Translations under genes and position numbers: made by a program
The notes under the pieces: generated by a model
The model's input: only the letters and a program-made list of their open reading frames with translations
Databases searched by the model: none
Told to the model about the DNA's origin: nothing
Source: Gemmatimonadaceae bacterium
GTDB taxonomy: Bacteria > Gemmatimonadota > Gemmatimonadetes > Gemmatimonadales > Gemmatimonadaceae
Direction of reading: 5' to 3'
Length of the DNA stretch: 64,000 nucleotides
Assembly (NCBI GenBank): GCA_051859245.1
Contig: JBHYGA010000005.1
Coordinates: forward strand, 384,001-448,000
Shown here: positions 29,987 to 50,086 of the stretch, piece by piece
How positions within the stretch are numbered: the first letter of the stretch is position 1
How the letters are laid out: each line of letters starts with the position of its first letter

Positions 29987-30179
29987 GTGCTCCTAATGCG
30001 GGGGGAACTGCGGCGGGAAGGACACGAAAGCACGAAGGAAACAAAGAAGAGCAACGGCAACGGATTTTGGGGAAACAGCAAAAAACGCTGCGGCTGCAAT
30101 TTTTCAAATGCTTTGCTGTTTTCGTGTCCTTCGTGCTTTCGTGTCCTTCCCGCCGCAGTTCCCCCCGCATTAGGCGCAC
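29987..30179. repeat. Long inverted repeat (repeat family A, face-to-face) next to a GxxExxY gene
   Basis: 29987-30038 is the reverse complement of 30128-30179 except for one mismatch; arms carry periodic CACGAA units. Confidence 0.9.
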
Positions 30180-30186
30180 CTCGCCT

Positions 30187-30615
30187 TCAACGCTCCTCAG
30201 CCGGATACCCGTTCACAACGCGCCGCACGACTTCACGAAATGTCGGTGCGCCAAAGTTGAGAAGCAGCCCAATCCTCAGGTTCATCAGGCGCGCGTACGT
30301 GAGCGTTTGTTTGATGTGAGCCGCCGCGGTCTGATCGGCGACCTTCACCTCAACGATCAGTATGCCATCGACTACGAGATCGGCGCGAAATCCGCCCTCG
30401 AACAACTGGCCTTCGAAGTAAAAGTCCACCGGAAGCTGTCGCTCCACCCGACAGCCTCGCCGCTCCAGGGCATGCGCGAGCGCGCGCTCGTAGACGGACT
30501 CAAGCATGCCCGGGCCGAGGGCGCGGTAGAGGTGGTAGGCGGCGTCCACCACGAGAGCGGCGAGGACCTCTGGGTTCGGGGCAGACGGGGCAGGGCGAGC
30601 GGGCACGGGCGTCAC
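30187..30615 (-). CDS. GxxExxY protein (PD-(D/E)XK-like nuclease)
   Basis: LGPGMLESVY, FRADLVVD..LIVEVK, QTLTY, GLLLNFG. Confidence 0.9.
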   Translation of the reverse strand: MTPVPARPAPSAPNPEVLAALVVDAAYHLYRALGPGMLESVYERALAHALERRGCRVERQLPVDFYFEGQLFEGGFRADLVVDGILIVEVKVADQTAAAHIKQTLTYARLMNLRIGLLLNFGAPTFREVVRRVVNGYPAEER

Positions 30616-30723
30616 TCCACGGGAAATGGGGCCCAGAGAACAGGGGCGCCGGTTTACATTACGACGGCCCCGTCGTCAGGTCGTCATCACCCCGAATGAA
30701 TCCGTCCCTTTTGCCGTCGTTCG

Positions 30724-31002
30724 ATGCGTCGTAGTCGGTCCCCGATCTTTCTGCTGTCCGCCGGGCTCGCGCTTGGCTTTCTCGTTGGAGCCGGGGCCTG
30801 GAGCGCCCAGCTCAGCCGCAGCCGCAAGGCACTGTTTCACGCGCGGCCCACGCGCCGGATGGCCGCAATCAGTTACCTTCGGGCTCGGCCAAGCGTTGAT
30901 AGTGTGCGGCTGCTACGTGACTATATCGCGTGGGAAGCACATCCCATGCTGCGCCGTCGAGGGCAGCGGGCGCTTCTGCGTGTGGAGCGCGCGCTGCACT
31001 AA
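30724..31002 (+). CDS. Small hypothetical membrane-anchored protein
   Basis: N-terminal TM helix; co-oriented directly upstream of mglB. Confidence 0.6.
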   Translation: MRRSRSPIFLLSAGLALGFLVGAGAWSAQLSRSRKALFHARPTRRMAAISYLRARPSVDSVRLLRDYIAWEAHPMLRRRGQRALLRVERALH

Positions 31003-31043
31003 GCGTTTTTTGTTCTGAGACTCGGACTTTTCGGAGCCACAGT

Positions 31044-31532
31044 ATGCCCGTTGGCGCGTCGACCTGGTCGTTCACTGAAGACGACTTCGGGGCTATTACC
31101 AAGATTCTGCAGAGCTTTTTGTACGACGCCAAGGCGCGCTGTGCTCTGCTTGTGGACCGCTCCGGTCAGCTCGTGGCCACCGTTGGTGAGCCACCCAACT
31201 TTGACGCGACCGCCTTCGCCACACTTACGGCTGCGGATTTCAGCGCCAATGATCAGCTGGCGCGCCTAATTGGTGAAAGCGATTTCAAAGTGCTGTTTCA
31301 CCAGGGCGAACGCGAATCCATGTATCTCGCCGACGTCGCCAAGCGTGTGATCCTTGTCGTGCTGTTCGACAATCGCACAACGCTTGGTCTGGTCCGTCTC
31401 AAAATGAAAAGTGTGGTCGACGAGCTCTCGCGCACCTTCGAGTTGGTGTTCGCGCGTGGCACCGGCAGTCAGATCGCGCCGCCGGGGCTGCTCGCTGGCG
31501 CCGAAGACGAGATCGATCGCTTGTTTTCGTAA
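31044..31532 (+). CDS. mglB: Roadblock/LC7 protein, MglB-like GAP
   Basis: ALLVDRSGQ, LFHQGE, VLFDNRTTLGLVRL, EDEIDRLF; upstream of mglA. Confidence 0.9.
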   Translation: MPVGASTWSFTEDDFGAITKILQSFLYDAKARCALLVDRSGQLVATVGEPPNFDATAFATLTAADFSANDQLARLIGESDFKVLFHQGERESMYLADVAKRVILVVLFDNRTTLGLVRLKMKSVVDELSRTFELVFARGTGSQIAPPGLLAGAEDEIDRLFS

Positions 31533-31544
31533 GAGGGACACGCG

Positions 31545-32222
31545 ATGTCGATGATCAACTACGCGTCCCGCGAAATCAATTGCAAAATTGTGTACTACGG
31601 CCCGGGACTCGGTGGCAAGACCACCAATCTCGAGTTCATTTACGGCAAAGTGTCGCCGAGTACGCGCGGCAAACTGATTTCGCTCGCAACGGAAACAGAA
31701 CGCACGCTGTTCTTTGATTTCTTGCCGGTTGACCTTGGTACGATTCGCGGTTTTCGCACGCGATTCCATTTGTACACCGTGCCGGGCCAGGTGTACTACA
31801 ACGCCAGCCGCAAGCTCATTCTCAAGGGCGTCGATGGCGTGGTGTTTGTGGCCGATTCGCAGAGCGACCGCATGGAAGCGAATCTGGAGAGCATGCAGAA
31901 TCTGTACGACAACATGTCGGCGTACGGCTATGATCTCACGCGCATGCCGTTTGTGATTCAGTACAACAAGCGTGATCTCCCGAATGCGTCGCCACTCGGT
32001 TCGCTGAAGGAGATGCTGAATCCGGGCTGGGAAGTGCTCGAGTCGTCGCGTCAGCGTCCCCTGGCCAATCCGTTCGCGCCGGGTGACATGCTCGTGTCGC
32101 AACTGCCCACCGGAGAGTGGGTGGAGAAGGCGCCGGAGTTCGAGGCGGTGGCCGTCACGGGCGACGGTGTGTTTGATACGCTCAAAGCTGTCTCGAAACT
32201 CGTGCTCAAGACGCTCGCCTGA
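31545..32222 (+). CDS. mglA: MglA small GTPase
   Basis: [46 protein letters not shown]. Confidence 0.95.
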
Positions 32223-32301
32223 TTCAGGGCGTGGGGTGTAGATTACCCCACGCTCGTGCGGCCGCGCCGGTCGCTCTGTCGGTGCCCTCCGCGAGGCGTC
32301 T

Positions 32302-32982
32302 GTGAATCTCCCCAATGCGATCACTGTCGGCCGAATTGCGCTGACCCCTTTGATCGCCTGGCTGCCCTTTTCCACCTCGTGGACGGCGCGCCTGGTGGGC
32401 TTCACGCTGTTTCTGATCGCCGCCATCACTGACTGGTGGGATGGCCACATCGCCCGCACGCAGAATCTTGTCACGGATCTGGGCCGACTGCTCGATCCGC
32501 TCGCCGATAAACTGCTGCTCGTGGCCACGCTGGTCCCGATGTATTTGCTGCAATCGCATTACACGTTCATCGCGCCACTCACCGGCGTATTGCCCGAGCC
32601 GTCGGCGTTCTTGTTCGTCACACCGATTGGTCGGGTGTCATTGCCGGGTTGGATTGTCGCGGTGGTGATCGGACGCGAAGTGTTCATGACGCTCTTCCGT
32701 TCACTCGCCGCGAGACGCGGCATCGTGATCAGTTCGATCGGTCCCGCCAAGTGGAAAACAGGTTTCCAGAGTGTGTGGACGGGCGCGGCGTTCTTCTGGT
32801 TTTTCGCGCGCACCCTCGCCGGCGCTGAAGGCTGGCTCGAGGAAACGTGGTGGGCTTACTTCGCGCACTTCAATGGACTCACGGGGTTGGTGACCATGAC
32901 CGCCGCCGTCGGGCTTACGCTCTGGTCATTGGCGCTCTATTTAATGCGGTACGGGCCGGCGTTTCTGAAGGCGCGAGGCTAG
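32302..32982 (+). CDS. pgsA: CDP-alcohol phosphatidyltransferase (PgsA-like)
   Basis: MNLPNAIT..R, TDWWDGHIAR...GRLLDPLADKLL; synteny with cinA. Confidence 0.85.
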   Translation: MNLPNAITVGRIALTPLIAWLPFSTSWTARLVGFTLFLIAAITDWWDGHIARTQNLVTDLGRLLDPLADKLLLVATLVPMYLLQSHYTFIAPLTGVLPEPSAFLFVTPIGRVSLPGWIVAVVIGREVFMTLFRSLAARRGIVISSIGPAKWKTGFQSVWTGAAFFWFFARTLAGAEGWLEETWWAYFAHFNGLTGLVTMTAAVGLTLWSLALYLMRYGPAFLKARG

Positions 32983-33384
32983 CCGCGACTCGGCGCTGAA
33001 GTACGATGCGCGTCGGTTGATCAGGCGCGCGGTTCCGTTCTTTATCAGCGGCACGTGAAAATTCAAGAGCAGTCCGAGCGGACTATCGCTCAGTCGCAAG
33101 TAGGAGAGCAGCTGCGCCAGATGCAGCGGCTGCATGCGAGATACCGCCTTGAGCTCGACGATTACGAGCGATTCGACGCGCATGTCGATACGGTAACCAA
33201 TATCAAGCACGATGCCATGTTACCGAAGCCCAAGCTGAATGTTCTCTTCCACTACCAATCCGCGCTTGCGAAGCTCGTGGCTGAGGCAAGCCTGATAGGC
33301 GCTCTCGAGGAGCCCGGGGCCGAGCGCGGTGTGCACTCTCAGTGCCGCGTCTACGATCTGACCAGAGATGTCATTCAGCTTCAT
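32941..33384 (-). pseudogene. GxxExxY protein gene with an in-frame TAA
   Basis: LGPGLLESAY in the 5' part and YRID...VELK...QLLSY...GLLLNF in the 3' part, same frame; TAA at 33220-33222 in the context LGLR*HG. Confidence 0.85.
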
Positions 33385-33495
33385 TTTGAAGTTCCTGAGT
33401 TTGCGTGATGTGAAACTCGCCAACTCAAAACTCTCAAACACCGTCATCTCATCGTCTGATAACCAATCAGAAAAAATTCAGCGAGGCCATTCGCC

Positions 33496-33662
33496 TTCCT
33501 GCCTCCTGCGGGTTGTCTCTGCGTCTCTGCGTCTCTGCGTTCAAAGTAGTTCACGCAGCCGGCGATTCCGCGAACTCGCAGCGAAGACGAGCACCGCAAA
33601 CTGCTTTGAACGCAGAGACGCAGAGACGCAGAGACGCAGAGACTGCATGCAATTGGCAGGAA
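33496..33662. repeat. Inverted repeat with 8-nt periodic arms (repeat family B) upstream of the GxxExxY pseudogene
   Basis: (GTCTCTGC)3-GTTCAAAG versus CTTTGAAC-(GCAGAGAC)4; outer TTCCTGCC/GGCAGGAA. Confidence 0.9.
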
Positions 33663-33731
33663 ACGAAACTGATGGTCGGCTAGCGTCGGGGTTGAGTCGC
33701 CTGCTGAACCGCGCTCCGTTATTTTTTGTCA

Positions 33732-35036
33732 ATGGACATCGAACTCCTCACCATTGGCGACGAACTCCTCCTCGGATTCACCGTCGACACGAACTCCGCG
33801 CACATCGCACGCGTCCTCGCTGACTTCGGGGTGCGCGTAGTCCGACGCACAACGGTTGGCGACGAGCCGGACCACATTGTCAGTGCGCTCAACGACGCGC
33901 TTGATCGCACGGGCGCCGTGATCACCACTGGTGGGCTCGGTCCAACCACCGATGACCGCACACACGAAAGCATTGCACGCGCATATGATCGTGAGCTGGT
34001 GCTCGACGAAACGGGGCTGGCCGCACTGAGTCATCGCTGGGAAAAGCGCTTCGGCAAACCCATGCCCGAAAGCAACCGCCGACAGTTCCTGCTGCCCGCG
34101 AACGCCCACGTGCTGCGCAACTCCCAGGGCTCAGCACCCGGCACGTGGACCGAAGATGCACACGGTCGTTGGGTTGCCACGATGCCCGGTGTGCCACGCG
34201 AAATGCGCGCCATGCTCGCGGAGTCCATCGTGCCGCGCATCAAGGAACGATTGCAGCGCGATGGCCGTGAGGAACACACGCGCACGGTGATCCGATCGCG
34301 CACGCTCCGCACCACCGGCATTTCTGAATCGGCGGTGGCCGATCATCTCGCCGAGTTGCGTCGCGCGGTACACGACATTCCGCTGGCCTACTTGCCAGGA
34401 CTCGACGGCGTCGATCTGCGACTTACGGTAAGCGAACTCAACTCCGCAAACGCGGATGAAGCACTCGCGCGCGCCGCCAACACGATTCGTGAACGCGTCG
34501 GGCGCTGGATTTACGGTGAAAACGACGACGATCTTGCGGCGCTGGTGCTGAATGACCTCGGCGAACACGCACACAAAATTGCGGTCGCGGAAAGCTGCAC
34601 AGGTGGCTTGCTCGGCGCGCGACTCACGGCCGTACCGGGATCAAGTGCACACGTGCTCGGCGGCGTGATTGCGTACGATAATCGCATCAAGACCGAACAA
34701 CTCGGCGTGCCATCGGAGTTGATCGCCGAGCATGGCGCGGTCAGCGAAGCCGTCGCGCGTGCCATGGCTATCGGGGTGCGCGAACGTTTTGGCGCCGATG
34801 TTGGCGTGGGGATTACCGGCGTGGCCGGACCGTCTGGCGGCTCACCGGAAAAGCCTGTCGGTACCGTGTGGATTGCCGTTGACCTGCGCGGCGACGTCCA
34901 CGCCGTGAAGCCCGTGCTGCCGGGGGATCGCAACGAAATACGCCATCGCGCCACGCAGATAGCTCTTGAGCGCGTCCGGCGGGTATATGCAGGAGAGGCC
35001 AGCCTTCCAGGATGGACGGTGTCGGCCGATCGGTAG
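33732..35036 (+). CDS. cinA: CinA (NMN deamidase / competence-damage protein A)
   Basis: IGDELLLG..VDTNS, GGLGPTTDD, AESCTGG, GITGVAGP. Confidence 0.95.
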   Translation: MDIELLTIGDELLLGFTVDTNSAHIARVLADFGVRVVRRTTVGDEPDHIVSALNDALDRTGAVITTGGLGPTTDDRTHESIARAYDRELVLDETGLAALSHRWEKRFGKPMPESNRRQFLLPANAHVLRNSQGSAPGTWTEDAHGRWVATMPGVPREMRAMLAESIVPRIKERLQRDGREEHTRTVIRSRTLRTTGISESAVADHLAELRRAVHDIPLAYLPGLDGVDLRLTVSELNSANADEALARAANTIRERVGRWIYGENDDDLAALVLNDLGEHAHKIAVAESCTGGLLGARLTAVPGSSAHVLGGVIAYDNRIKTEQLGVPSELIAEHGAVSEAVARAMAIGVRERFGADVGVGITGVAGPSGGSPEKPVGTVWIAVDLRGDVHAVKPVLPGDRNEIRHRATQIALERVRRVYAGEASLPGWTVSADR

Positions 35037-35057
35037 GCAAATACCCGCGAGGTTCCC

Positions 35058-35552
35058 GTGCGCAAAACAGTGCAGTTCATGATGATCGGTTTGTTGGCGC
35101 TGGTGAGCGCATGCGGAGACGACGGGGGGACGGCACCGGGCATTCGAGAGCACCAGGAAGCCCAGCAGAAGTTCAATGCGCTTGGGCTCGTGTACTACAC
35201 GGTCGAGGCGCGGCAAATGTGCTTCTGTCCGGCTGGGTACGGCCTCTGGCATGAGATTACCGTGGCGAACAACGTGGTGATCGCGTCGCGACTGCTCGAA
35301 CCGCATCCACAGGGCGCCGAATTGCCGCCCGGCGCGCACCGAACCGTCCAGCAGACGTTCGAATTCGTGGCCGACTTTTTTTCGGATGGGTCCCGCGCAC
35401 GTCGCGGTGAACGACTCGAGGCCACCTACGACGCCGAGACCGGACTGCCACTCACGGTGGCGTACACCGCGGCCCCGGGCGTAGCCGATGGCGACGTGAC
35501 GTTCCAGTATCGGGCGCTCAAGCCGGGCCTCACGCAGCGCGTGCAGCGGTGA
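35058..35552 (+). CDS. Lipoprotein, DUF6174-like
   Basis: Lipobox VSAC; Y......CFC, YD..TGLP. Confidence 0.65.
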   Translation: MRKTVQFMMIGLLALVSACGDDGGTAPGIREHQEAQQKFNALGLVYYTVEARQMCFCPAGYGLWHEITVANNVVIASRLLEPHPQGAELPPGAHRTVQQTFEFVADFFSDGSRARRGERLEATYDAETGLPLTVAYTAAPGVADGDVTFQYRALKPGLTQRVQR

Positions 35553-36031
35553 GCGAAAGCGCCTGGGGAAGGCGTATGGTGAGCACGGCCGTGATCGCTG
35601 CGGTGGTTGCACTGCTCGCCTGCAGCGAAGGCGCGTTGGAGCCCGCGCCGATCACGGCGGTGAACGATGCGAACGCGCGCTGGCAGGCACTCGCGCTGAC
35701 GTCGTATCGAGTGGACGTCCGCCAGGAATGCTTCTGCTCACCTGACGACCAGAAATGGTACGAGGTGAGGGTCGTCAACAACTCGGTCAGGGAAGTGTGG
35801 CCTCTCGAACCCATCAATCCGGAAATATCGAGGCGACCACATTTCCCCACGATCAGCGAGGTGTACGGCCTGCTGGCCGCCGCGCCGCAACCGCCGACCA
35901 CGTTGTTTCGCGGCGAGTTTGACCCGCGAACGGGGCTGCCACTGCGCGTTTGGCTTGGGTACCCGTCGGCGAATGACAGCGGTGTGTACTACGAGTTCCG
36001 CAACCTGCGTGCTGGAACATCACAGCAGTGA
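35549..36031 (+). CDS. Lipoprotein, DUF6174-like (paralogue of the upstream gene)
   Basis: Lipobox LLAC; ARW....LTSY....QECFC, FDPRTGLP. Confidence 0.65.
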   Translation: MSESAWGRRMVSTAVIAAVVALLACSEGALEPAPITAVNDANARWQALALTSYRVDVRQECFCSPDDQKWYEVRVVNNSVREVWPLEPINPEISRRPHFPTISEVYGLLAAAPQPPTTLFRGEFDPRTGLPLRVWLGYPSANDSGVYYEFRNLRAGTSQQ

Positions 36032-36123
36032 CGAGCTGAGCCGCGTAGATTGGGCCTAGAGACTGCATTCGGGCATCGGCTTCGGCCGAGTGTCCGCTGG
36101 TACTCCTCCTTGCCCCCGCCCCA

Positions 36124-37221
36124 ATGTCCGCCCCATCCGTATTCTTCGCGCGCCTGACGTCCGCAGCCCTGTTCGGCGCGCTCGTCACGGCTCCTGTGCA
36201 GGCGCAGGCCGCTGCCGGTGCACCGCAGCGCGCTCGTCAGGTGGTCCCGATGGATTCCGCGCGCGCCGCCGCGCTGTACGTGAGCAACCGTCACGAAGAT
36301 CATCCGGTTTCGAACTACGAATCCGCAATCGCCGGTAAGAAGGTGACGGATTCGATCTTTGCCGCGCGCAGCGTGGGCAAAATGACGTACAGCAAAATCA
36401 AGTACAAATCGCGTCCGGACGGGCTCGAAATTCCGGCCTACGTGTTTGGCCCGCTTACGCCGCGCGGCCCCGCCGCCCATGCCGCCATGGTGTGGGTGCA
36501 CGGCGGCGTACACGGCAACTGGGATCAGAACTACCTGCCGTTCATCATCGAGGCCGTCAAACGCGGCTATGTGATCATCGCACCCGATTACCGCGGCAGC
36601 ACCGGGTACGGAAAAGAGTTTCACAATCTGATCGACTACGGCGGCTACGAAGTCGACGACGTGCTGAGCGCCTACGACTATCTCAAAACGGTGCCGCACG
36701 TGGACACCACACGCGTTGCTGTGATGGGCTGGAGCCACGGCGGCTTTATCACTGCGCATCTGCAGTTCAGAAGCCAGACGCCGTTCAAGGCGGGCGTGGC
36801 CATGGTGCCGGTCACCAATCTCTTTTTCCGCTTGTCGTACAAGGGGCCGAGCTACCAGCGCTCGTTCTCCACGCAGTCACGCCTGCAGGGGTTGCCCTTC
36901 GAGCAGCGTGAGGAGTACAAGCGTCGGTCGCCGTACTACCACGTGGACAGCCTCAATACGCCGCTCCTGGTGCACGTGGCTACGAACGATACGGACGTGA
37001 ACTTTGAAGAAGCCGAGCCCTTGATCGACGCGCTCCGGGCCCGCAAGCCGCATCTCGCGGAGACCAAGATTTACGTGGACCCCACGCCCGGCCCGGCTAG
37101 CGTTGGCCATACGTTCAACCGCAACGTGAACCGGCAGACCCTCGAGCTGAATGATTCGCCCGAGCAGACGGACAGCTGGAATCTGACGTGGGCGTTTCTC
37201 GAGAAATGGCTCAAGCCGTGA
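36124..37221 (+). CDS. S9 family secreted peptidase (alpha/beta hydrolase)
   Basis: VHGG, DYRGSTGYG, nucleophile motif GWSHGG. Confidence 0.9.
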   Translation: MSAPSVFFARLTSAALFGALVTAPVQAQAAAGAPQRARQVVPMDSARAAALYVSNRHEDHPVSNYESAIAGKKVTDSIFAARSVGKMTYSKIKYKSRPDGLEIPAYVFGPLTPRGPAAHAAMVWVHGGVHGNWDQNYLPFIIEAVKRGYVIIAPDYRGSTGYGKEFHNLIDYGGYEVDDVLSAYDYLKTVPHVDTTRVAVMGWSHGGFITAHLQFRSQTPFKAGVAMVPVTNLFFRLSYKGPSYQRSFSTQSRLQGLPFEQREEYKRRSPYYHVDSLNTPLLVHVATNDTDVNFEEAEPLIDALRARKPHLAETKIYVDPTPGPASVGHTFNRNVNRQTLELNDSPEQTDSWNLTWAFLEKWLKP

Positions 37222-37331
37222 TTGTTGGCTGGCCGGTTGTGCCGCGGGTCGTGCAGTGAAAACTTTGTGGATGCGTCCGGCGTACGGCCCTCACGGGGCC
37301 GTCGCCCCCGCGTCACCCGAAACAACTGCTC

Positions 37332-37889: not shown

Positions 37890-37890
37890 A

Positions 37891-39607: not shown

Positions 39608-39828
39608 CGCGAATTCACATGTACGCCGTTGTGCTCTCCGAGGCGCCCTCTCATTGTGCGATTTTCACGCCTACCCGCGCACGTGCAACTGAAACCGATG
39701 AGTTCGCCATGCGCTGTTGCCCTGCAAGATCGTTACGCTTGAGGATGCGCGAGGGCGTCGGTTTTGTATTGACGGCATAAATCCGGCGCGGTATGCTGAA
39801 TCCATGAGTGCAACATCTGAGCTAGATC

Positions 39829-39881
39829 GCGCAACGGCGCAACGGCGCAACGGCGCAACGGCGCAACGGCGCAAGGGCGCA
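39829..39881. repeat. 8-nt tandem repeat (GCGCAACG)5 plus one degenerate unit
   Basis: Read directly from the sequence; ends 16 nt before the island lipoprotein gene. Confidence 0.9.
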
Positions 39882-39897
39882 GCGCTGGAGCGCAGTG

Positions 39898-41409
39898 ATG
39901 CGCTACGCGACATGGGGCGTTTTACTGCTTCTGGTGCTGGGTTGCGACGCGAGCGCACCCACGCGCGACCAGTCTGAGACGAGGACGGCGCGAGCGGTTA
40001 GCGCTCCTGACACGCTTACTGCGCGCGCGTCTGTCACCGAGTGCAGCGATCCGGCATGTGAACCACCGCCACCAAGGCCCTGGTCGTGGTCCGTGATCGT
40101 GGGGCGCGGAACGGACGCAGCTGCGCGAGACAGCTCAGCAGAGGTGCTCAGTTTTCCTTCGCGTACGAGAGTCCGAATACGAGCTAGCGGCAGCATTGCC
40201 CGTTCATACAACCCTGCCATTGCTACGACGTTTCCCCAGTATACGGGCTATTTCCCTCCCATTGATGCCGACGGCGAGTGGTTAGGGTCTGACAAATCTG
40301 CCTTCCTCTTCACGAACTTCACAGGCACAGGTGTGCTTGGCTTAACGCTGCTTCGAACTCCGACATGGGGGAGCGGAAACAGTCAGCACGATGCCACTGC
40401 AGCTGAGTATGAGGTCTCTGGGGTCGTACGTGGCACTGGGCGGATTGTCAGGCAGGGGTTTCTCCAGCCTATGAATCCCGGCCCGCCCGCCTGCAATGGC
40501 GTGACCGGAATACCATGCGTTCTAGCAGCCGGCGGCCAACATACCGTGGTTGTCGAGATTATCGCGCAGCAGCTCTCGCTAACAGCCTCACCCGATAGCA
40601 TCACTGTTGGCGATAGCGTGACCTTCACTGCGACGGCGACGTCGTCGCTTGCGGTGCTTGAGTGGAAATGGCAGCCAAGTTTGTCTGCTGCGACGCATAC
40701 GCCGGTGAATCTCTGTTCTGCGGGGCAGTCCACCTGCAGGATCCCCGTGTTCGAACCAGGCACGATGTACGTGCTTGCGACCGTCGGTACCGGTAGCTCC
40801 GCGACGCGTGAAGTCGCAGGGGACAGCGTCGCAGCAGCTGACCCGGTGTATCCGCCGGTGACGTGTCCAACGGGTGAACCGCTGCTCGACCTTGGCGCTT
40901 CGCGTGAGATTCTGCGCGAAGTGATGAAGCGTACCGACAGCATTACACCCAAGGTCGAATGGGCGGGGTACGTATACCAACTGCCCGGTGGTCAATATCG
41001 GTTTAAGGTGGACACGCTGGCGGCGAATGACTGTTCCAGCTCATCCGCGAGCGCCGCCGCGCCTCCGGGCTGGACTCAGGTGCTGCTTGTACACTCGCAT
41101 CCGGCGGCGCCGGGGCGTGGAATCTGTGGAATGGGAGAACGAGCCCGACGCGGACCTCATGGCGGCCTTTTCTCACCAGGCGACTGGGACTTGGCTGATC
41201 CCACATATCACAATCCCGCCGTTGCGATCGCAGTGATTGATCCCTCAAGTATTGCCTTGGGAAAACCGGCTGCCTGGGAGAACACCGTTAGGGTGAGGAA
41301 TCGAAGAGACACAAGCGTCTTTTATAATCGAAAAGTGCCCAGCAAATCACAGTTCGACCAACACTACGCCGAGTTCAAGAGAAAGGAGGGGGCATGCAAC
41401 CGACCATAA
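39898..41409 (+). CDS. Lipoprotein with Ig-like region and C-terminal JAB/MPN-like (DUF4329-like) domain; putative toxin/effector
   Basis: Lipobox VLGC; Ig-like LSLTASPDSITVGDSVTFTA; EWAG...VHSHP...FSPGD. Confidence 0.65.
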   Translation: MRYATWGVLLLLVLGCDASAPTRDQSETRTARAVSAPDTLTARASVTECSDPACEPPPPRPWSWSVIVGRGTDAAARDSSAEVLSFPSRTRVRIRASGSIARSYNPAIATTFPQYTGYFPPIDADGEWLGSDKSAFLFTNFTGTGVLGLTLLRTPTWGSGNSQHDATAAEYEVSGVVRGTGRIVRQGFLQPMNPGPPACNGVTGIPCVLAAGGQHTVVVEIIAQQLSLTASPDSITVGDSVTFTATATSSLAVLEWKWQPSLSAATHTPVNLCSAGQSTCRIPVFEPGTMYVLATVGTGSSATREVAGDSVAAADPVYPPVTCPTGEPLLDLGASREILREVMKRTDSITPKVEWAGYVYQLPGGQYRFKVDTLAANDCSSSSASAAAPPGWTQVLLVHSHPAAPGRGICGMGERARRGPHGGLFSPGDWDLADPTYHNPAVAIAVIDPSSIALGKPAAWENTVRVRNRRDTSVFYNRKVPSKSQFDQHYAEFKRKEGACNRP

Positions 41410-42302: not shown

Positions 42303-43595
42303 ATGAACACCCGCGCCACTCTCGCGCAAACGCTCGTACGAACGATCGGTTTGGCGGCCCTGATTCTCATGCCGGCGACAGCTTCCTCGCAGCCTGTCGC
42401 GGACGTACGCCTGCGCGTCTTTCTCGACTGCCCGAGCGGTGGCTGCGATCGCAACTTTATCGTCAACGAACATCCGTACGCGATCTGGACGCAGGATCGC
42501 CTCGATGCCGACATTCACTTGCTCATCACGCGCCTCACCACTGGTGCGGGCGGCAACGCATACACGCTGCAGTTCATCGCCCAGCGCCGATTGTCGGCCG
42601 ATGTTGATACGCTTGAAGTCAGCGTTCCGCCGAACGTGAGCGATGACATGGAGCGTCGCGCGCTCGCGCGCACGATCAACATAGGCCTCGCGGCAAACGC
42701 AGCACGATTTGTTGGCGCAGACCAGTTCACCGTCGCGTACGCACCGCCGGAATCCGCGGAAGCCGAGGCCTCTGCGGAACTGTCAGACAAGTGGAATTTG
42801 TGGGTCTATCGGTTTCGGCTCAGTGGCGACGGCAACGCCGAAAGTCGCGCCAGCGAATACGAACTCTCCGGCGAGTTCAGCGCCACGCGCGTGACGGAAG
42901 ACTGGAAGTTGACGTTCGACGGAGAAAACGAATACGAAGCCGAGCAGTTCACGCTGCGTGATGGCACCGAACGTGAGTTTGTGTTGCGCAGCGCCGATGT
43001 AAACGCGCGCGCGGTGAAGAGCCTCACACAACACTGGTCCGTAGGCACACAACTCGGCGGTGGCTTGTCGGAGTTCAACAATCAGGATGCGTCGGCCAAG
43101 TTTGATGTGTCGGCCGAGTACAACGTGTTCCCGTGGTCGGAAGCCACAAGCCGACAGTTGATTGCGCTTGTCGCACTCGGCGGTCGCTACTACGACTACC
43201 GCGAGATCACACTGTTCGATCGGACAAGCGAGCTTCGTCCGGTGGCGCAGGCCGTTGTGGCCGGTGAGTCGCGTCTCGCCTGGGGCACCGTTGATGGATC
43301 GCTGCGCTACACGCAGTTCCTGCACGACCTTGAGCGCTACAATCTGTCGTTTTACGCGCGCAGTGAGTTTCGCCTGACACGCGGTTTGTCACTCGATATC
43401 AGCGCGGAAGCGGCCAAGGTGCAGGATCAGTTGTATCTGCCGCGCGGCGAAGCGAGCAACGATGAAGTGCTCACGCGCCAGCGGGCACTTGCCACGGCGT
43501 ATCGACTCAGCGCATCAGTTGGCGTGAGCTTCACCTTTGGCTCGATCTACAACACGATTGTCAATCCGCGATTGAACGAGCTGGGGAATAACTGA
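42303..43595 (+). CDS. Hypothetical outer-membrane beta-barrel protein
   Basis: Signal peptide; VFLDC...CD; amphipathic strands; FGSIYNTIVNPR end. Confidence 0.75.
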   Translation: MNTRATLAQTLVRTIGLAALILMPATASSQPVADVRLRVFLDCPSGGCDRNFIVNEHPYAIWTQDRLDADIHLLITRLTTGAGGNAYTLQFIAQRRLSADVDTLEVSVPPNVSDDMERRALARTINIGLAANAARFVGADQFTVAYAPPESAEAEASAELSDKWNLWVYRFRLSGDGNAESRASEYELSGEFSATRVTEDWKLTFDGENEYEAEQFTLRDGTEREFVLRSADVNARAVKSLTQHWSVGTQLGGGLSEFNNQDASAKFDVSAEYNVFPWSEATSRQLIALVALGGRYYDYREITLFDRTSELRPVAQAVVAGESRLAWGTVDGSLRYTQFLHDLERYNLSFYARSEFRLTRGLSLDISAEAAKVQDQLYLPRGEASNDEVLTRQRALATAYRLSASVGVSFTFGSIYNTIVNPRLNELGNN

Positions 43596-43767
43596 CAGCA
43601 GGCGCGAAAGTTTGCGCCATCGCCCTTATGTCGTAATGGTCGGTTTGCGCTTCGCAACCTATTGATTCCGCGCGACACATTCCGGTGCTCGTCGCAGGCA
43701 GCAGCGAGCCCATCATTCCCCTGAGAATCACCGAGGTGGCGCGTGGGGGAACGTCCACACGAAAGGA

Positions 43768-43796
43768 TTGACATTTGTATGGACAAATGCGAGAAT
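43768..43796 (+). promoter_or_regulatory. Promoter with embedded palindromic operator of the TA module
   Basis: TTGACA-N17-GAGAAT; CATTTGT-ATGG-ACAAATG palindrome at 43772-43789. Confidence 0.7.
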
Positions 43797-43898
43797 GAGT
43801 ATAGGCGCGTTTTCATTCGTCCGATCAGCGCCCGTTACATGCATCAACGAGAGGTAGATGCGTATACCACGCAAAAAGATCCCGACGTTCAAGACTGA
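43795..43898 (+). pseudogene. BrnT-type toxin remnant (mostly deleted)
   Basis: 43815-43898 translates IRPISARYMHQREVDAY...*, a typical BrnT C-terminus, overlapping the antitoxin start. Confidence 0.7.
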
Positions 43899-44136
43899 TC
43901 GTGATGCTGAAGATTTCGTCGCCTCGGCCGACCTCTCCGAGTTCGATCTGTCGGGCTTTCGGCCGGTTCGTTTTGAGTACGAGGCGAAGGGCGCGAAAGT
44001 GAACATGAGGTTGCCCGAATCACTGCTTGCTGCGGTCAAACACCGGGCAACGCTGCTCGGCATCCCGTATCAGCGATTTATTCGAGATGTACTGGAGCGC
44101 GCGGTTACTTCGACACCACCCACCAAGCAGCGCTAA
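43858..44136 (+). CDS. BrnA/CopG-like ribbon-helix-helix antitoxin
   Basis: PTFKTD..AEDF...DLSEFD; VNMRLP..LL..VK..A...GIPYQRFIR..LE. Confidence 0.85.
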   Translation: MRIPRKKIPTFKTDRDAEDFVASADLSEFDLSGFRPVRFEYEAKGAKVNMRLPESLLAAVKHRATLLGIPYQRFIRDVLERAVTSTPPTKQR

Positions 44137-44150
44137 GCACAGACTGACGT

Positions 44151-45338
44151 CTACGCTTGCTCCACAATCCGGTCAATCAGGAAGCGCGACTGCTCAAGCG
44201 CCTCACCGGTAAACTCGCCAAAGTACGCGCGCACGTCCTCGAACACCGCGTCAAACTTCGCCTGATCGCCCTCGGCGAGAATGCGCGTGAGATCTTCCGT
44301 CGCAGACTGAAACGCCGCCGTCACGTCTGCCGTGCGCGGGTTCAGCATTTCGATCGGACCGTACAGCACCGACGACTGCGCGAAGTGCCGAGCGGCTACG
44401 TACAACTCTAGTAAATACGCGGGCGAGGTGTACGGACGTGTCTCCGCGATCGGAATGCCGAGGCGCGCGAGCGTGAGACCGAACACCTGTGTCTGAAAGT
44501 GCGTGAGTACCTGCACCACACTCATCGCGGTGTCGTGCTGCTCGGCCGTTGCCTCGGCCACGATCAAACCACGCGACGCAAACGCGTGTTGCACCCAGTC
44601 GTACCACGCGTCGCCACGACCGCGGCACAGCACCACACGTTGACCCTGTAGTGTGTGCACGCCAGGCCCAAACATCGGGTGCGTGCCTACAACGCTCGCG
44701 CGCGTGTGCGCCAGCATGGCCGCAACCGGTGCACTCTTGATGCTGGTCACGTCCATCAGCAATGCATCATCGTGCATATGCGGACCGATCTCGGCAATCA
44801 CCTGTTCGGTCACACCGATTGGCACGCAGATAATCACGACGTCGGACATCTGCGCTGCCGCCGTGGCAGTGAGCGTGGTGTCTAGGTCCACCGCCAACAC
44901 GTTGTGTCCCAGGTCGCCGAATAAACGCACCAGCAACTGACCAAACTCGCCGCGCGCACCAATCACTGACACCGTGCGTACGACCTGATCGACAGGGACT
45001 TCGGCACGCAGTGCGGACTGATGATCGCGACTGGCGCGCAGCAATACGCGAAAAATGGATTCGATCTCGTCGCGCGGCAGCCCGAGTCGGTGCGCACGTT
45101 CCGCGCGATCGGCCAGTACCGATTGTTCGCGCGTTGCATCGCGCACCTTGAGCCCGTGCAGTCGCTTGTACGCCGCCACTTCACTCACGAGTGACATGCG
45201 GCGGCTGAGGAGCTGCAACAGTTCGCGGTCCAGCGCGTCGATCATCGCGCGTACAACGGGGAGCGGACGCGGTGGTGCGTCGCCCGTGAGATCGCTCGTG
45301 TCGGGTGAGGACGTGCTTGCCGAGTCGTGAGTACTCAC
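44151..45338 (-). CDS. tyrA: Bifunctional chorismate mutase / prephenate dehydrogenase
   Basis: R..ID..D..LL.LL..R CM domain; IGARG, DVTSIK, HPMFGP, HD..M..VQ.LTH. Confidence 0.9.
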   Translation of the reverse strand: MSTHDSASTSSPDTSDLTGDAPPRPLPVVRAMIDALDRELLQLLSRRMSLVSEVAAYKRLHGLKVRDATREQSVLADRAERAHRLGLPRDEIESIFRVLLRASRDHQSALRAEVPVDQVVRTVSVIGARGEFGQLLVRLFGDLGHNVLAVDLDTTLTATAAAQMSDVVIICVPIGVTEQVIAEIGPHMHDDALLMDVTSIKSAPVAAMLAHTRASVVGTHPMFGPGVHTLQGQRVVLCRGRGDAWYDWVQHAFASRGLIVAEATAEQHDTAMSVVQVLTHFQTQVFGLTLARLGIPIAETRPYTSPAYLLELYVAARHFAQSSVLYGPIEMLNPRTADVTAAFQSATEDLTRILAEGDQAKFDAVFEDVRAYFGEFTGEALEQSRFLIDRIVEQA

Positions 45339-46438
45339 GCCGCCATCACAGGCAACGCACCACGACCCGCGCGTGTGATCACGCCGCCGCCGAGCACGAC
45401 GTCGCCGTCGTAGAGCACCAACGACTGGCCGGGTGCAACGCCTTGCACGGACTCAGACAGCACCACTTCAATCGACTCATTGTCCGCGCGCAGCACAGTG
45501 CTCGGCACAATCGCGCCGCGATGCCGCACCTGCACCTGCACCAACGCACCTTCCGCTGGCTGCGGGGCAAGCCAGTTGATCTGATGCGCAGACACACGAT
45601 TCCGCGCCAACGACGAACGCGGGCCTACCACCACCTCACGCGTCGCAGCGCGAATCTCGGTGACAAACCACGGTTCACTCACGCCACCAGGTAAACCTTT
45701 GCGCTGTCCGATGGTGAAGCGCGCAAAGCCCTGATGCTCACCCAGTACACGACCATCTTCGGTGACAATGCGTCCCGGAGAGAGCGCTGCTGCATCGGGT
45801 GGCAGATGCTGCTTGAGAATCTCAATGTGATCACCCTGCGGCACAAAACAGATGTCCATGCTCTCGGGCTTGTTCGCCGTGCGCAATCCAAAGCGCCGCG
45901 CGGCTGCACGCGTTTCATCCTTGGTCCAGTCACCAACTGGCAACAGCAATCGACTCAGCACCGGCTGCGGCATGCCCCACAAGAAATAACTCTGGTCTTT
46001 GGCGGCATCGCGACCGCGCAGCAACACGCGACCGTGCGGCGTGTCTGCCAATCGTCCGTAATGACCGGTGGCAATCCACTGCGCATCAATGGCATCGGCC
46101 TTCACCACGAGATCGCGGAACTTGGTGAAGGTGTTGCAGCGCACGCACGGGATTGGTGTGCGACCCGCGGCGTACTCGCTCACAAAATCGTTGAACACAT
46201 CGCGCGTGAACACGTCAACGAGATTCAGCACGTAGTGCGGCACACCCAACTGCTCGCACACTCGGCGTGCATCGCTCGTGGCATCGAGCGAGCAGCACGG
46301 CTTGTCGGGCAACTCGGCGCCGTCTTCGTGCAGCTTCATGGTCACGCCAACCACGTCGTACCCCTGCTCGAGGAGCACGGCGGCCGCCACTGAAGAATCC
46401 ACGCCGCCTGACATCGCGACCACGACACGCTCACGCAT
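45335..46438 (-). CDS. mnmA: tRNA 2-thiouridylase MnmA
   Basis: AMSGGVDSS, TP.PC..CN, ATGHY, KDQSYFL, TIGQRKG, PGQ. Confidence 0.95.
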   Translation of the reverse strand: MRERVVVAMSGGVDSSVAAAVLLEQGYDVVGVTMKLHEDGAELPDKPCCSLDATSDARRVCEQLGVPHYVLNLVDVFTRDVFNDFVSEYAAGRTPIPCVRCNTFTKFRDLVVKADAIDAQWIATGHYGRLADTPHGRVLLRGRDAAKDQSYFLWGMPQPVLSRLLLPVGDWTKDETRAAARRFGLRTANKPESMDICFVPQGDHIEILKQHLPPDAAALSPGRIVTEDGRVLGEHQGFARFTIGQRKGLPGGVSEPWFVTEIRAATREVVVGPRSSLARNRVSAHQINWLAPQPAEGALVQVQVRHRGAIVPSTVLRADNESIEVVLSESVQGVAPGQSLVLYDGDVVLGGGVITRAGRGALPVMAA

Positions 46439-46440
46439 CA

Positions 46441-47601
46441 CTAAACCGTGGCGAACCCGCGCGACTTGCGCGCCAGCGTGATGAGTACGTCGGCGGCGCG
46501 ATCCACGTTCTCTTCGGTGCTGAGCGCGCCAAATGAGAGGCGCAGTGCGCCGCTTGCGACTTCTGGTGCCACGTGCATGGCCTGCAACACGTGCGACATG
46601 CCCACGCTGCCGCTCTGACATGCGGAACCACCAGACGCCTGAATGCCGCGTAGGTCGAGTGCCATGAGCAACGTTTCTGCGTCGGTGCCGGGAATGCTCA
46701 GGTTCGTCACGTGTGGTGCACGCGGCGCATTGGCGCCCTGAATTACCACATCGGGGAGCGCGTCACGTACGCGTGCTTCCAGTCGCTCGCGCAACGCGAG
46801 CAAATGCGCCACGTCGGCTTCGCGCTCTTTCACCGCCAGCTCGCACGCCACGGCGAGGCCAATGGCGTACGGTACATTCTCGGTTCCGGCACGACGTCCG
46901 CGATCCTGACTACCGCCGTGCAACATGGGTTCGAGCTGCACGCCGCGACGAATGAACAGCGCACCAATGCCCTTAGGCGCGCCAATCTTGTGTCCGCTGA
47001 GCGTGAGCAGATCCACTGGCAACGAGCGCATGTCAAAGGCAATCTTGCCAAACGCCTGAACGGCATCGGTGTGCATCAGCGCGCCAGCGGCTTTGGCGAC
47101 GTTGGTGAGCGCGGGAATGTCCTGCACCACGCCGATCTCGTTGTTCACCCACATCACGCTGGCCACGGCGAGCGATGCATCGCAGGACCGCGTGAACGCT
47201 TCCATGTCGACGATGCCGTCGCGCGACACCGAGGCAAAGCGTTCTTCACCGCCTTCGCGCACGACCTGATGACAGGCGGCCAGGACGGCCTTGTGCTCAA
47301 TGGGCGTGGAGAGCACGGCGTTGCGGCCAGACGCGCGCGCGGCACGCCACGCGCCGATAACGGCAAAGTTGTCGCCCTCGGTGCCACACGAGGTAAAACA
47401 GACCTCGTCGGGGTGCGCACCCAGAGTGGCGGCGACGCGCTCGCGCGCTTCATCGAGTGCCACGCGCGCTTCCCGCCCCAGCCGGTGCACGCTGGACGGA
47501 TTGCCAAAGCGCGTCGAGAACCACGGCATCATGGCGTCGAGCACTTCGCTTCGCACGGGCGTCGTAGCCGCGTGGTCGAGATACACGGGGGAGTGGCTCA
47601 T
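46441..47601 (-). CDS. iscS: Cysteine desulfurase (IscS/NifS type)
   Basis: YLDHAATTP, NPSS.H, HTDAVQ, SGHKIGAPKG, GSAC. Confidence 0.92.
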   Translation of the reverse strand: MSHSPVYLDHAATTPVRSEVLDAMMPWFSTRFGNPSSVHRLGREARVALDEARERVAATLGAHPDEVCFTSCGTEGDNFAVIGAWRAARASGRNAVLSTPIEHKAVLAACHQVVREGGEERFASVSRDGIVDMEAFTRSCDASLAVASVMWVNNEIGVVQDIPALTNVAKAAGALMHTDAVQAFGKIAFDMRSLPVDLLTLSGHKIGAPKGIGALFIRRGVQLEPMLHGGSQDRGRRAGTENVPYAIGLAVACELAVKEREADVAHLLALRERLEARVRDALPDVVIQGANAPRAPHVTNLSIPGTDAETLLMALDLRGIQASGGSACQSGSVGMSHVLQAMHVAPEVASGALRLSFGALSTEENVDRAADVLITLARKSRGFATV

Positions 47602-47728
47602 CCTGATTAAATTATCCGGTGTCGGGGCGTGTGCCTACCTCGGGCGGCAGGTTCCTCCTCCGATTCTGCGCATGAGTGGGCCCGCAGCCGTCATCGCTGG
47701 TCCAGCGCTGTCTCCCTCCGACTTTTGC

Positions 47729-48835
47729 ATGTTCACCACCTGCTACGTCTGCGCCGCACTGCTGGAGCGCAATCAGGTCCTCGAGGAGATGCCGGTGGGG
47801 CGCCGTCTGGCGTTCAACCAGCGCACGGGGCGCCTGTGGGTGGTCTGCCGTCAGTGTGAGCGGTGGAACCTGTCGCCGCTCGAAGAACGCTGGGAGGCGA
47901 TTGAGGCCTGCGAACGCCTGTTTCGTGATACGCGGCTGCGTGTGAGCACGGACAACATTGGTCTGGCGCGCGTGCGCGGCGGGCTGGATCTGGTGCGCAT
48001 TGGGGAACCGCAGCGTCCGGAGTTTGCGGGGTGGCGGTATGGCGATCAGTTCGGGCGGCGGCGCAAGCGGAACGCAGTGGTCGCGGGCGCGGCGGTTGGT
48101 GCCACTGGACTGGCATTTGTGGGCGGAGCAGCCGTTGGCCTCTTTACCGTGGGCACCACATTTCAGCTGTATCTGCACCGTCAGCGGCTTACCGACTATC
48201 TGATGTTTGGTTCGTCAACCGCGATTGTTGCACGATTCACGGACGCCGAGGGGAAGCTGCGTTTTGTAGAGCGAGGTCAGGCGCGTTCTGCAGCGCTTGT
48301 GCGTGCGAGCAGCGAATCAGACGCATTCAGTTTGCACGTACCGCACACACGAGGCATTGCGATTGTGGAAGGCGCAGACGCCGTTCGGCTCGCCCACACG
48401 ATTCTTCCAGTGGTGAACAAGTTTGGTGGCACTGCGGCCGTGGTGCAGGACGCTGTGCGCGTTGTAGAGGACGCGGGCAGCGCCGACGAAGCGCTGCGCT
48501 ACATCGCACGATCACGAGGACGTTCGCGAGAACAGCGTGAGCAAAAGTTTGCCGCGATTGTCGAGAAAGACATGGGGCAATCGCCACCATTCGCACTGCG
48601 CGGACTGCCGGTAGCGATTCGCCTCGCCCTCGAAATGTCGCTGCACGAAGACGCTGAACGGCGCGCAATGGACGGTGAGCTGGCGCAACTCGAAGCCGCC
48701 TGGCGCAACGCGGAGGAACTTGCGGGCATTGCGGATTCGCTGGTGGAACCCGAACAGCTGCAGTCACGTATCGAGACACTGCGACGCGCGACTTCGCATA
48801 ATGCAGCAATGAACACATCGGGCGACACAGCATGA
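47729..48835 (+). CDS. Hypothetical protein with N-terminal CxxC...CxxC zinc ribbon and TM segment
   Basis: MFTTCYVC...RLWVVCRQCERWNL; paralogue of the next gene. Confidence 0.8.
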   Translation: MFTTCYVCAALLERNQVLEEMPVGRRLAFNQRTGRLWVVCRQCERWNLSPLEERWEAIEACERLFRDTRLRVSTDNIGLARVRGGLDLVRIGEPQRPEFAGWRYGDQFGRRRKRNAVVAGAAVGATGLAFVGGAAVGLFTVGTTFQLYLHRQRLTDYLMFGSSTAIVARFTDAEGKLRFVERGQARSAALVRASSESDAFSLHVPHTRGIAIVEGADAVRLAHTILPVVNKFGGTAAVVQDAVRVVEDAGSADEALRYIARSRGRSREQREQKFAAIVEKDMGQSPPFALRGLPVAIRLALEMSLHEDAERRAMDGELAQLEAAWRNAEELAGIADSLVEPEQLQSRIETLRRATSHNAAMNTSGDTA

Positions 48836-49935
48836 CGGTACCGGCACACACAGACTCCATGTACACGCACTGTGTGCATTGCAACGCGTCACTCGGCAAG
48901 AACGACGTGCTCGAAGCGTTTCCCGTGGGCGAACGCGTGGCGTTTGACGAGAACAAAGGCCGGTTGTGGGTGGTGTGTCGCAAGTGCGAACGCTGGAACC
49001 TCGCGCCGTTCGAATCGCGATGGGAAGCGATTGAGCAGGCCGAGCGCGCGTATCGCAGCACCAACGTTCGCATGGCCACGGACAACATCGGGCTCGCCAA
49101 ATGGCGTGATGGCACCACACTCGTGCGTGTTGGGCGCCCACTGCGTCCGGAGTTTGCCGCGTGGCGGTACGGTGATCAGTTCGGGCGACGTCGCCGGCGC
49201 ACAGTGATCGGCGCCTCCGTGCTCGCGGCCGGTGGAGTGGCCGTAGTGAGCGGCGCGGTGGCCTCAGGCGTTGGCCTGGTAGCACTGCTGCCAATCGTGC
49301 ACGCGGTGAACATGGTGACGCTGCTTCGCAACCAACGCGCGGGCTTCACGCCACTCGCGCACCCCGACGGTGATTATTTCCTGCCGTTTGGCGTACCGAA
49401 GTTGATTGCCGGAACGCGCGGTGCGAATGACTGGGCGATCGAGATCGGATGGGTGCGCCGCATGCAGGAGCCACGCATGACCCTCAAGTCGTGGTTTGGC
49501 AACGGTCAGAACTCCGAACAGGGACGCGTGGTGCTTACGGACGCGCTGGCGCGTGATGCGTTGTCAAAGTTGCTGCTGCGCGTGAACTCGGGCGGTGCTT
49601 CAAGTGCACGCGTGCAAGACGCCGTCAGCATGATTGAAAACGCGGGTGGCCCCGACCAGATGATGTCGTGGGCCGTCACCCAGCGTAATGTGTGGGGCGC
49701 CAAACAATACTTCGGCGACACGGGCGATCTGCAATACATCCCAACCGAAGCGCGTCTCGCGATTGAAATGTCGGTGCATGAAGAACGCGAGCGGCTCGCG
49801 CTCCTCGGCGAACTCGCCGAACTCGAACGCGCGTGGATGGACGCCGAGCGTATCGCCAACATTTCCGACAACCTGCTGGTCGATCCCATCACTCAAAACA
49901 CGTTCGAAACAATGCGAGACCAGCACCGCGACTAA
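48832..49935 (+). CDS. Hypothetical protein with zinc ribbon and TM segment (tandem paralogue)
   Basis: MYTHCVHC...RLWVVCRKCERWNL; shared WRYGDQFGRRR and RLA.EMS.HE. Confidence 0.8.
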   Translation: MTVPAHTDSMYTHCVHCNASLGKNDVLEAFPVGERVAFDENKGRLWVVCRKCERWNLAPFESRWEAIEQAERAYRSTNVRMATDNIGLAKWRDGTTLVRVGRPLRPEFAAWRYGDQFGRRRRRTVIGASVLAAGGVAVVSGAVASGVGLVALLPIVHAVNMVTLLRNQRAGFTPLAHPDGDYFLPFGVPKLIAGTRGANDWAIEIGWVRRMQEPRMTLKSWFGNGQNSEQGRVVLTDALARDALSKLLLRVNSGGASSARVQDAVSMIENAGGPDQMMSWAVTQRNVWGAKQYFGDTGDLQYIPTEARLAIEMSVHEERERLALLGELAELERAWMDAERIANISDNLLVDPITQNTFETMRDQHRD

Positions 49936-49938
49936 TCA

Positions 49939-50086
49939 GTTTTCGTGTCCTTCGTGCTTTCGTGTCCTTCCCGCCGCAGTTCCCCCAGCATTAGGCGCAT
50001 CTAGCGTTGAAGCATTCATGCTCCGGCCGGCAAGGGAACTGCGGCGGGAAGGACACGAAAGCACGAAGGACACGAAGAAGGGCAAC
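49939..50086. repeat. Orphan copy of repeat family A, arms back-to-back
   Basis: 49939-49999 matches 30118-30178 with one mismatch; 50034-50086 closely matches 30003-30055. Confidence 0.9.

Follow-up and report, generated by a model that had tools for sequence, protein, structure and literature searches.

Small GxxExxY genes and dispersed inverted-repeat hairpins in a Gemmatimonadaceae genome: candidate partners in a widespread cassette

Introduction

A 64,000-nt stretch of the genome of a Gemmatimonadaceae bacterium (assembly GCA_051859245.1, contig JBHYGA010000005.1, positions 384,001 to 448,000; G000:C5:384001-448000 in our labels, and "the window" hereafter) contains two small genes of the GxxExxY family, each lying against a long inverted repeat (IR). 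GxxExxY/PDDEXK_3 is a very large family without an assigned function, and many bacteria have hairpin repeats of no known source. The locus raises the question whether gene and hairpin belong together, as the first-pass annotation of this DNA had proposed in suggesting that each GxxExxY variant recognizes or spreads its own repeat family. From sequence comparisons we answer, with moderate confidence, that the window genes and hairpins belong to widespread small-gene cassettes with inverted arms of 8-base units, and that the nuclease would likely sustain or spread the gene-less copies. Since arm sequence is conserved with the gene across phyla, an excess of arrays is seen only where the gene is present, and each repeat family has one gene, the relation suggests a dependence like that between REPINs (hairpin-forming doublets of repetitive extragenic palindromic, REP, sequences) and RAYTs (REP-associated tyrosine transposases).

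Results

GxxExxY genes and hairpins in the window

The genome (G000) comprises 11 contigs and is 99.87% complete. The features under study are the following.

29981-30192, no strand: IR1, hairpin of family 1 (21 loci in all), lying between the stop codons of recR and gene 1
30187-30615, minus strand: gene 1, GxxExxY/PD-(D/E)XK, intact, 142 aa, with matches to the PF13366 and TIGR04256 profiles
32941-33447, minus strand: gene 2, GxxExxY, with an in-frame TAA at 33220-33222 and a likely start at ATG 33384
33496-33662, no strand: IR2, a family-2 hairpin 5' of gene 2, one of 17 family-2 loci
49939-50089, no strand: third hairpin, gene-less, family 1, pyrimidine-rich arm first, filling the gap between two convergent genes

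Gene 1 matches PF13366 (E = 3.3e-33) and TIGR04256 (E = 3.6e-33) above both curated cut-offs (115 bits with a cut-off of 22, and 114.4 bits with a cut-off of 35). It carries the motif residues G34, E39, and Y42 and the catalytic residues D79, E89, and K91, all six of which are invariant across 58 aligned sequences, gene 1 among them. When its AlphaFold2 model (pLDDT, predicted local distance difference test, 91.8) was used in fold searches, the best matches were all PD-(D/E)XK nucleases (Hjc, Cas4, and restriction enzymes), but weak: the best Foldseek match was an archaeal Hjc at E 4.3e-3, and VIA-align gave Z <= 7.6. As judged from the predicted model, the fold matches are generic for PD-(D/E)XK and a subfamily cannot be assigned. 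A search of the sequences of solved structures with a 13-sequence profile gave no match at E <= 1, and a homodimer prediction scored 0.00 and is given no weight in either direction.

In gene 2 the TAA replaces a Tyr that is nearly invariant among relatives, and it sits between the GxxExxY motif and the catalytic core. The motif and catalytic residues are retained, and the two pieces score 60.4 and 48.5 bits. The same TAA letters occur in a second assembly. It was made from the one sequencing run that contains the window stretch, probably the run behind this genome; its contigs break at hairpins and none of its joints is informative, those between IR1 and IR2 being links from repeat to repeat in the assembly graph. 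No RNA sequencing run is listed as containing the stretch. The 3' end of gene 2 overlaps the end of pgsA, and the downstream arm is absent. Genes 1 and 2 are the only PF13366 matches in the whole genome. The assignment of both genes to the GxxExxY family in the first-pass annotation is therefore upheld by profile and motif, while an intact gene 2 is contradicted by the in-frame TAA. That the genes interrupt a run of housekeeping genes is borne out by same-genus genomes in which the junctions are empty, with gaps of 24-61 nt between pgsA and cinA and 163-189 nt between recR and mglB.

The window hairpins have arms composed of purine-rich short units, one kind being ACACGAAG-like and the other ACGCAGAG. 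IR1 consists of a purine-rich arm (29987-30058), a loop of ~60 nt, and a pyrimidine-rich arm (30118-30190), and the segments 29987-30045 and 30121-30179 pair over 59 nt with 95% complementarity. Found at the 3' end of gene 1 with its outer ends facing outward, it makes up a complete unit without a gene, and its outer extension reaches over the stop codon and final codons of gene 1. IR2 has the opposite arrangement, a pyrimidine-rich arm, 47 nt, and a purine-rich arm with units ACGCAGAG, so that the outer ends face each other across the 47 nt; the pairing segments are 33515-33551 with 33599-33635 (37 nt, 97%) and 33496-33540 with 33618-33662 (45 nt, 84%). Its left arm turns the inner end toward gene 2, 112 nt from ATG 33384, and occupies the place of the upstream arm of complete cassettes found elsewhere. 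The third hairpin, which is also present at the orthologous site in genome G002 of the same genus, has arms 49942-49984 and 50034-50076 that are 100% complementary over 43 nt. Folded as single-stranded DNA with 200 shuffles per hairpin, IR1, IR2, and the third hairpin reach -88.5, -67.1, and -67.9 kcal/mol (z-scores -13.4, -9.6, and -14.6), and 0 of the 200 shuffles was as good for each. Arms and fold z-scores agree with the earlier statement that each gene adjoins its own long inverted repeat of periodic purine-rich units. The 49939-50089 copy had been described as near-identical to IR1: it is a real family-1 hairpin, with the arm order swapped relative to IR1. At gathering scores Rfam matched none of the hairpins, and its only match in the window was the signal recognition particle (SRP) RNA described below.

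Two hairpin families dispersed through the genome

The arms of IR1 and IR2 are not local features: copies, mostly gene-less, were counted at 21 genome loci for IR1 (family 1) and 17 for IR2 (family 2). There are 17-18 two-arm loci in family 1, 10-11 of them purine-first and 7 pyrimidine-first (49939-50089 included), plus 3 single arms; two of the 17 family-2 loci together make up a single hairpin that an insertion sequence (IS) has split. Genes 1 and 2 adjoin different dispersed families, 1 and 2 respectively, so that the proposed pairing of each gene with its own repeat family, with many gene-less copies as opposed to two genes, is what we find. Rough arithmetic on locus counts puts the chance of both genes touching a hairpin at ~1e-3 to 1e-4. 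Arms share a polarity, with an outer AACTGC or TCACGC-like motif followed by at least 3 units of 8-9 nt and then the inner end. Within family 1, the two arms of a locus resemble each other more closely than arms taken from different loci do (0.955 vs 0.935, reached by 2 of 5000 permutations). This co-variation suggests that the pairs are copied as units.

No Y1/RAYT transposase was found: PF01797 has no match at E <= 0.01 in this genome and does match in the control genomes, in line with the prediction that the genome has no RAYT. Nor did we find a transposase that shares the hairpin termini, other transposase families not having been scanned one by one. The only large inserts between arm pairs are three small genes and one IS3-family element. 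This single-copy element splits the family-2 hairpin at C5:214146-217026 (locus L154), and it is itself split by an IS30-like element with 22-nt ends that are 91% complementary. The presence of an IS within a family-2 hairpin indicates that hairpin loops take up insertion sequences. The idea that the family-2 arms at C5:214146-217026 are the ends of the IS3-family element was rejected, as the IS is single-copy with its own termini; its terminal repeats sit 85 and 12 nt inside the family-2 arms. The search thus gave neither a RAYT nor an IS transposase with hairpin termini, either of which the first-pass annotation had named as fatal to its proposal.

Between G002 and the present genome, two orthologous sites both keep the hairpin and at a third the contig ends early; these three G002 sites gave no close empty/filled pair from which to read target-site duplications or exact element ends. 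Tandem duplicates of arm outer ends were observed at C4:359685-359775, at C4:1057554-1057640, and at locus L016 upstream of the GxxExxY gene of G001 (5, 2, and 4-5 copies, respectively), and the empty G007 site shows a duplication of the final ~20 nt of recR. Both kinds of duplicate may be traces of element copying or excision. A fourth repeat, very GC-rich, ~50-70 nt long, and found in both orientations, occurs at several contig ends (for example C6:272795-284254, C8:1-55, and C9:76351-77029).

Inverted arms enclose GxxExxY genes across phyla

An alignment of the GxxExxY proteins of the genus, used as the query, retrieved 80 loci from many phyla, of which 74 have flanks of at least 400 nt and were compared with 531 shifted control positions. 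Inverted arms made of 8-base units in tandem stand around the gene, enclosing it, at 35 of the 74 loci, and such an arrangement occurs at none of the 531 controls. Compact hairpins adjoin the gene at 15 of the 74 loci vs 13 of the 531 controls, and one or the other arrangement is present at 45 of the 74. Inverted-repeat pairs amount to 67 per 92.9 kb near the gene vs 13 per 358.7 kb farther out, so the repeats are commoner near GxxExxY genes, as the earlier proposal demanded. The arms are 8-nt periodic (best autocorrelation at least 0.7 in 18 of 47, compared with 0.8% of control segments), and they have in common an outer end resembling (G)TTCACGC, after which come RRAG-RCGC units. The purine-rich arm is upstream in ~34 loci and the order is reversed in 6, with 8 ambiguous rows judged by eye.

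Unit type also clusters on the protein tree, which bears on the co-phylogeny test asked for in the first-pass annotation. It takes 18 changes on the tree, compared with 26.3 on average for shuffled labels, and none of the 200 shuffles was as low; sphingomonad subclades differ in unit type. Since related genomes share labels, this clustering speaks for co-inheritance and not for specificity.

Array excess is confined to gene carriers in the phylum sample

The phylum sample consisted of 121 genomes at least 90% complete, 42 with a GxxExxY gene and 79 without. Arrays were measured as two-unit pattern hits minus reversed-control hits, with an excess threshold of at least 30. Of the 42 gene carriers 18 reached this excess, and of the 79 other genomes 0 did (Fisher 2.8e-10, in a test that takes no account of shared ancestry), and the largest value among gene-less genomes was +26. 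The 18 genomes are spread over 18 genera and 4 families. After 6 hits are allowed for each gene copy, 12 of the 42 still reach 30 by our own arithmetic. Several genomes with one or two genes have 86 to 479 pattern hits; for example, G095 has a single gene between two small hairpins of CACAGAG units and 207 hits, and G124, whose enclosing arms measure 50 nt, has 479.

Two fixed sites in the genus

The genus comparison covered 15 genomes with 0-3 GxxExxY genes each. Nearly all of these genes are at the recR-mglB junction (site 1) or the pgsA-cinA junction (site 2), and their proteins divide into two clades that match these sites. Units of CGAAG type accompany clade 1, and those of GCAGAG/GCGGAG type clade 2; clade is confounded with site, except for one clade-2 gene at a third site. 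Protein identity within one site is ~50-60%, compared with 82-90% for RecR, and this low identity at fixed sites marks the genes, which are single-copy there, as old, fast-evolving residents. A small open reading frame (ORF) at 30724-31002 lies between gene 1 and mglB, and its DNA is kept across the genus; site 1 is therefore the interval between the recR end and this ORF, not the position directly before mglB. Its start looks membrane-anchored by eye, without a predictor, and Pfam has no family for the longer overlapping ORF 30626-31018.

Periodic arms or hairpins stand beside 14 of the 15 complete genus genes when the flanks are read by eye, the one in G013 being without, and with blastn set strictly, hairpins are recovered at 8 of 18 genus loci. 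Canonical enclosing arms are present in G011, in G012, and in G009 at site 2; full hairpins on both sides of the gene are present in G009 at another site and in G007. The hairpin beside the single gene of G005 has ~14 other loci. Comparison of empty and filled sites showed that gene-less junctions are bare, except for site 1 of G012, which has a hairpin of another family.

A third family with an intervening-sequence-type gene

Family 3 consists of ~240-nt palindromes with units like GGCCGAAW at 34 loci, and its hairpins form 14 of the 22 contig ends of the 11 contigs. The only PF05635 gene of the genome, which encodes a four-helix-bundle "23S rRNA IVS protein" (IVS, intervening sequence), is at C1:950750-951144 and is enclosed by 84-nt family-3 arms (C1:950460-951378, locus L131). 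It has a full ~235-nt palindrome on each side, and its stop codon is within the downstream arm. In the genus, 15 of 23 PF05635 genes are enclosed by inverted repeats. Families 1, 2, and 3 thus have exactly one gene-bearing copy each, with gene 1, the broken gene 2, and the IVS-type gene, respectively.

Other features of the window

A bacterial small SRP RNA (RF00169, 40.6 bits) is at 27002-27098, upstream of dnaX. At 39821-39892, at the start of ORF 39895-41409, the octamer GCGCAACG is repeated ~8 times in tandem and lacks an inverted partner, and this unit resembles arm units beside GxxExxY genes in Geobacter loci (L059 and L086). An 80-nt direct repeat with 80% identity (47990-48069 and 49120-49199, 1130 nt apart) lies within the adjacent ORFs 47291-48835 and 48832-49935, which look like tandem paralogues; Pfam has no family for ORF 48832-49935.

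Discussion

How the gene might sustain its hairpins, and what speaks against it

If the nuclease sustains its hairpin family, the GxxExxY protein would bind the unit arrays and, once the hairpin is folded or extruded, would cut at it or nearby, and the copying step would be done by host repair or replication. The outcome would be a pair resembling REPIN and RAYT, with one vertically inherited gene and many non-autonomous hairpins. In a bolder form, which we put forward tentatively and hold to be somewhat less probable, GxxExxY proteins could be the enzymes of an undescribed cross-phylum mobile DNA, in which an autonomous cassette of 460-500 bp, the nuclease gene flanked by arms of 8-base units in tandem, would drive tens to hundreds of gene-less hairpins per genome. 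This would be a second, independent REPIN/RAYT-like lifestyle, here based on a PD-(D/E)XK enzyme, and a sister to the ORF-bearing 23S rRNA IVS.

Several observations weigh against a role of the nuclease in sustaining the hairpins. In the window both genes adjoin hairpins and neither sits between arms. Family 2 numbers 17 loci, with arms as much as 100% alike, despite the broken state of gene 2. Array excess is below 30 in 24 of the 42 gene carriers; the two-unit pattern was learned from arms that adjoin GxxExxY genes, and shared ancestry is left aside by the Fisher test, as noted above. Site 1 in G012 acquired its other-family hairpin with no GxxExxY gene there, and this marks site 1 as a hot spot. 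Genomes G002 (95% complete) and G008 (88%) are rich in arrays without a GxxExxY match; both assemblies lack the mglB-to-cinA block, where relatives carry the genes, and for this reason they are not clear exceptions. Family 3 shows the same pattern of one gene and many hairpins with a four-helix-bundle protein that is not a nuclease. Through its tie to the PF05635 gene, the architecture is common to two unrelated protein families and does not require this nuclease. Finally, PD-(D/E)XK enzymes hydrolyze DNA and are not known to perform strand transfer. As cutting is all they are known to do, there is no candidate for the insertion step.

Other explanations

The last two points lead to a different account, in which the hairpins, as vehicle or target, multiply by other means (for example a host function or replication slippage on palindromes) and the gene, like that of the four-helix-bundle protein, is a selfish passenger that cuts gene-less hairpins and is copied into them by repair via arm homology. 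Two unrelated small gene families share the architecture in one genome and genus, a cut-only enzyme suits homing, the loops accept other inserts such as the IS3-family element with its nested IS30-like element in a family-2 loop, and the decay of gene 2 is as in a homing life cycle. Free-standing homing endonuclease genes include small PD-(D/E)XK ones; they resemble the present case in having a small nuclease gene amid a palindrome with empty copies elsewhere, and they differ from it in that most hairpins here are empty, the genes are fixed at two genus sites, and whole cassettes occupy sites that are hairpin-free in relatives. A passenger gene also predicts hairpins in genomes without the gene, yet none of the 79 gene-less genomes has an excess of at least 30. 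The hairpins of families 1 and 2 have remained mostly empty despite an intact gene 1, and the genes do not occur in varying hairpins. We consider this account possible and rather unlikely.

The arms might instead act in transcripts, like those of the 23S rRNA IVS, as a stem cut by RNase III or as a transcript end or stabilizer that spares the neighboring genes, while the nuclease has another job and shares only history with the arms. The IVS of Coxiella has a terminal stem of 28 bp and, ahead of a small ORF, 7-nt repeats in tandem, and RNase III excises it (PMC4990558). The cassettes are built in the same way, and family 3 carries an IVS-type gene. Hairpins also prefer gaps between convergent genes (23 of 48 vs a background of 22%, with a crude gene caller). 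This explanation does not account for the retention of arm sequence and outer motif with the gene across phyla, for the array excess only where the gene is present, or for the multiplication of hairpins, and it is compatible both with a nuclease that sustains its hairpins and with a homing passenger. As a replacement for either we find it improbable.

A chance gathering of REP-like hairpins and small foreign genes in the same permissive gaps, with no functional tie, fits the other-family hairpin at site 1 of G012 and the preference for 3'/3' gaps, and is very hard to believe given the enclosing arms at 35 of 74 loci vs 0 of 531 controls, the pairing of each gene with its own family, the clustering of unit type on the protein tree, and the array excess in 18 of 42 vs 0 of 79 genomes.

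Relation to known systems

The closest described counterpart is the ORF-bearing 23S rRNA IVS. The IVS with an S23p ORF in Coxiella and Leptospira likewise has a small ORF between stem-forming inverted repeats and short tandem repeats, and is likewise patchy in presence with an ORF that tends to decay (PMC4990558). Here a small ORF is enclosed in the 35 of 74 cross-phylum loci and in G011, G012, and G124; in the window the likeness is half complete, with one arm at gene 2 and gene 1 outside its hairpin. Unlike the IVS, the elements stand between protein genes rather than within rRNA, those in the window have a PD-(D/E)XK nuclease as cargo, and gene-less copies number tens per genome.

REPIN/RAYT systems, the subject of PMC3116915, PMC3337134, and PMC5581495, share with the present case a single-copy, mostly vertical gene flanked by hairpin repeats with many scattered gene-less copies. 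They also share lineage-specific families and a multicopy hairpin of two inverted units that is replicated as a pair (here in family 1). They differ in that no Y1/HUH transposase was found here, the candidate enzyme has a PD-(D/E)XK fold, and the arms are arrays of 8-nt units and not a REP of 20-40 nt.

REP ends carry a GTAG or CGTC tag, whereas the outer ends here are AACTGC or TCACGC-like. In the bacterial interspersed mosaic elements (BIMEs) of E. coli the repeat arms alternate in orientation, with two spacer kinds; family 1 is similar in occurring in both arm orders (10-11 purine-first and 7 pyrimidine-first), and differs in its unrelated sequences and in a genome without RAYT. The hairpins are also like MITEs (miniature transposable elements with inverted repeats) and the targets of REP-directed IS in being short, non-autonomous, intergenic inverted-repeat elements, and the IS3-family element in a hairpin loop resembles ISPpu9 in REPs (on such elements see PMC10969869 and PMC12288879). 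Unlike MITEs, they have no transposase with these termini among those we found, and the IS that interrupts a family-2 hairpin is bounded by terminal repeats of its own. A full-text literature search, which did not cover supplements, found no published link of GxxExxY proteins with repeats; the passages on these proteins in one GxxExxY paper (10.1101/2021.01.26.428298) are not about repeats.

Significance

Hairpins of this kind break short-read assemblies and reshape the ends of neighboring genes. The origin and mobility of the ORF-bearing 23S rRNA IVS have been a question for decades. If it is true that the nuclease sustains its own hairpin family, the GxxExxY protein family would gain a role, and the REP-like repeats of RAYT-free genomes would be explained and linked to the long-puzzling rRNA intervening sequences.

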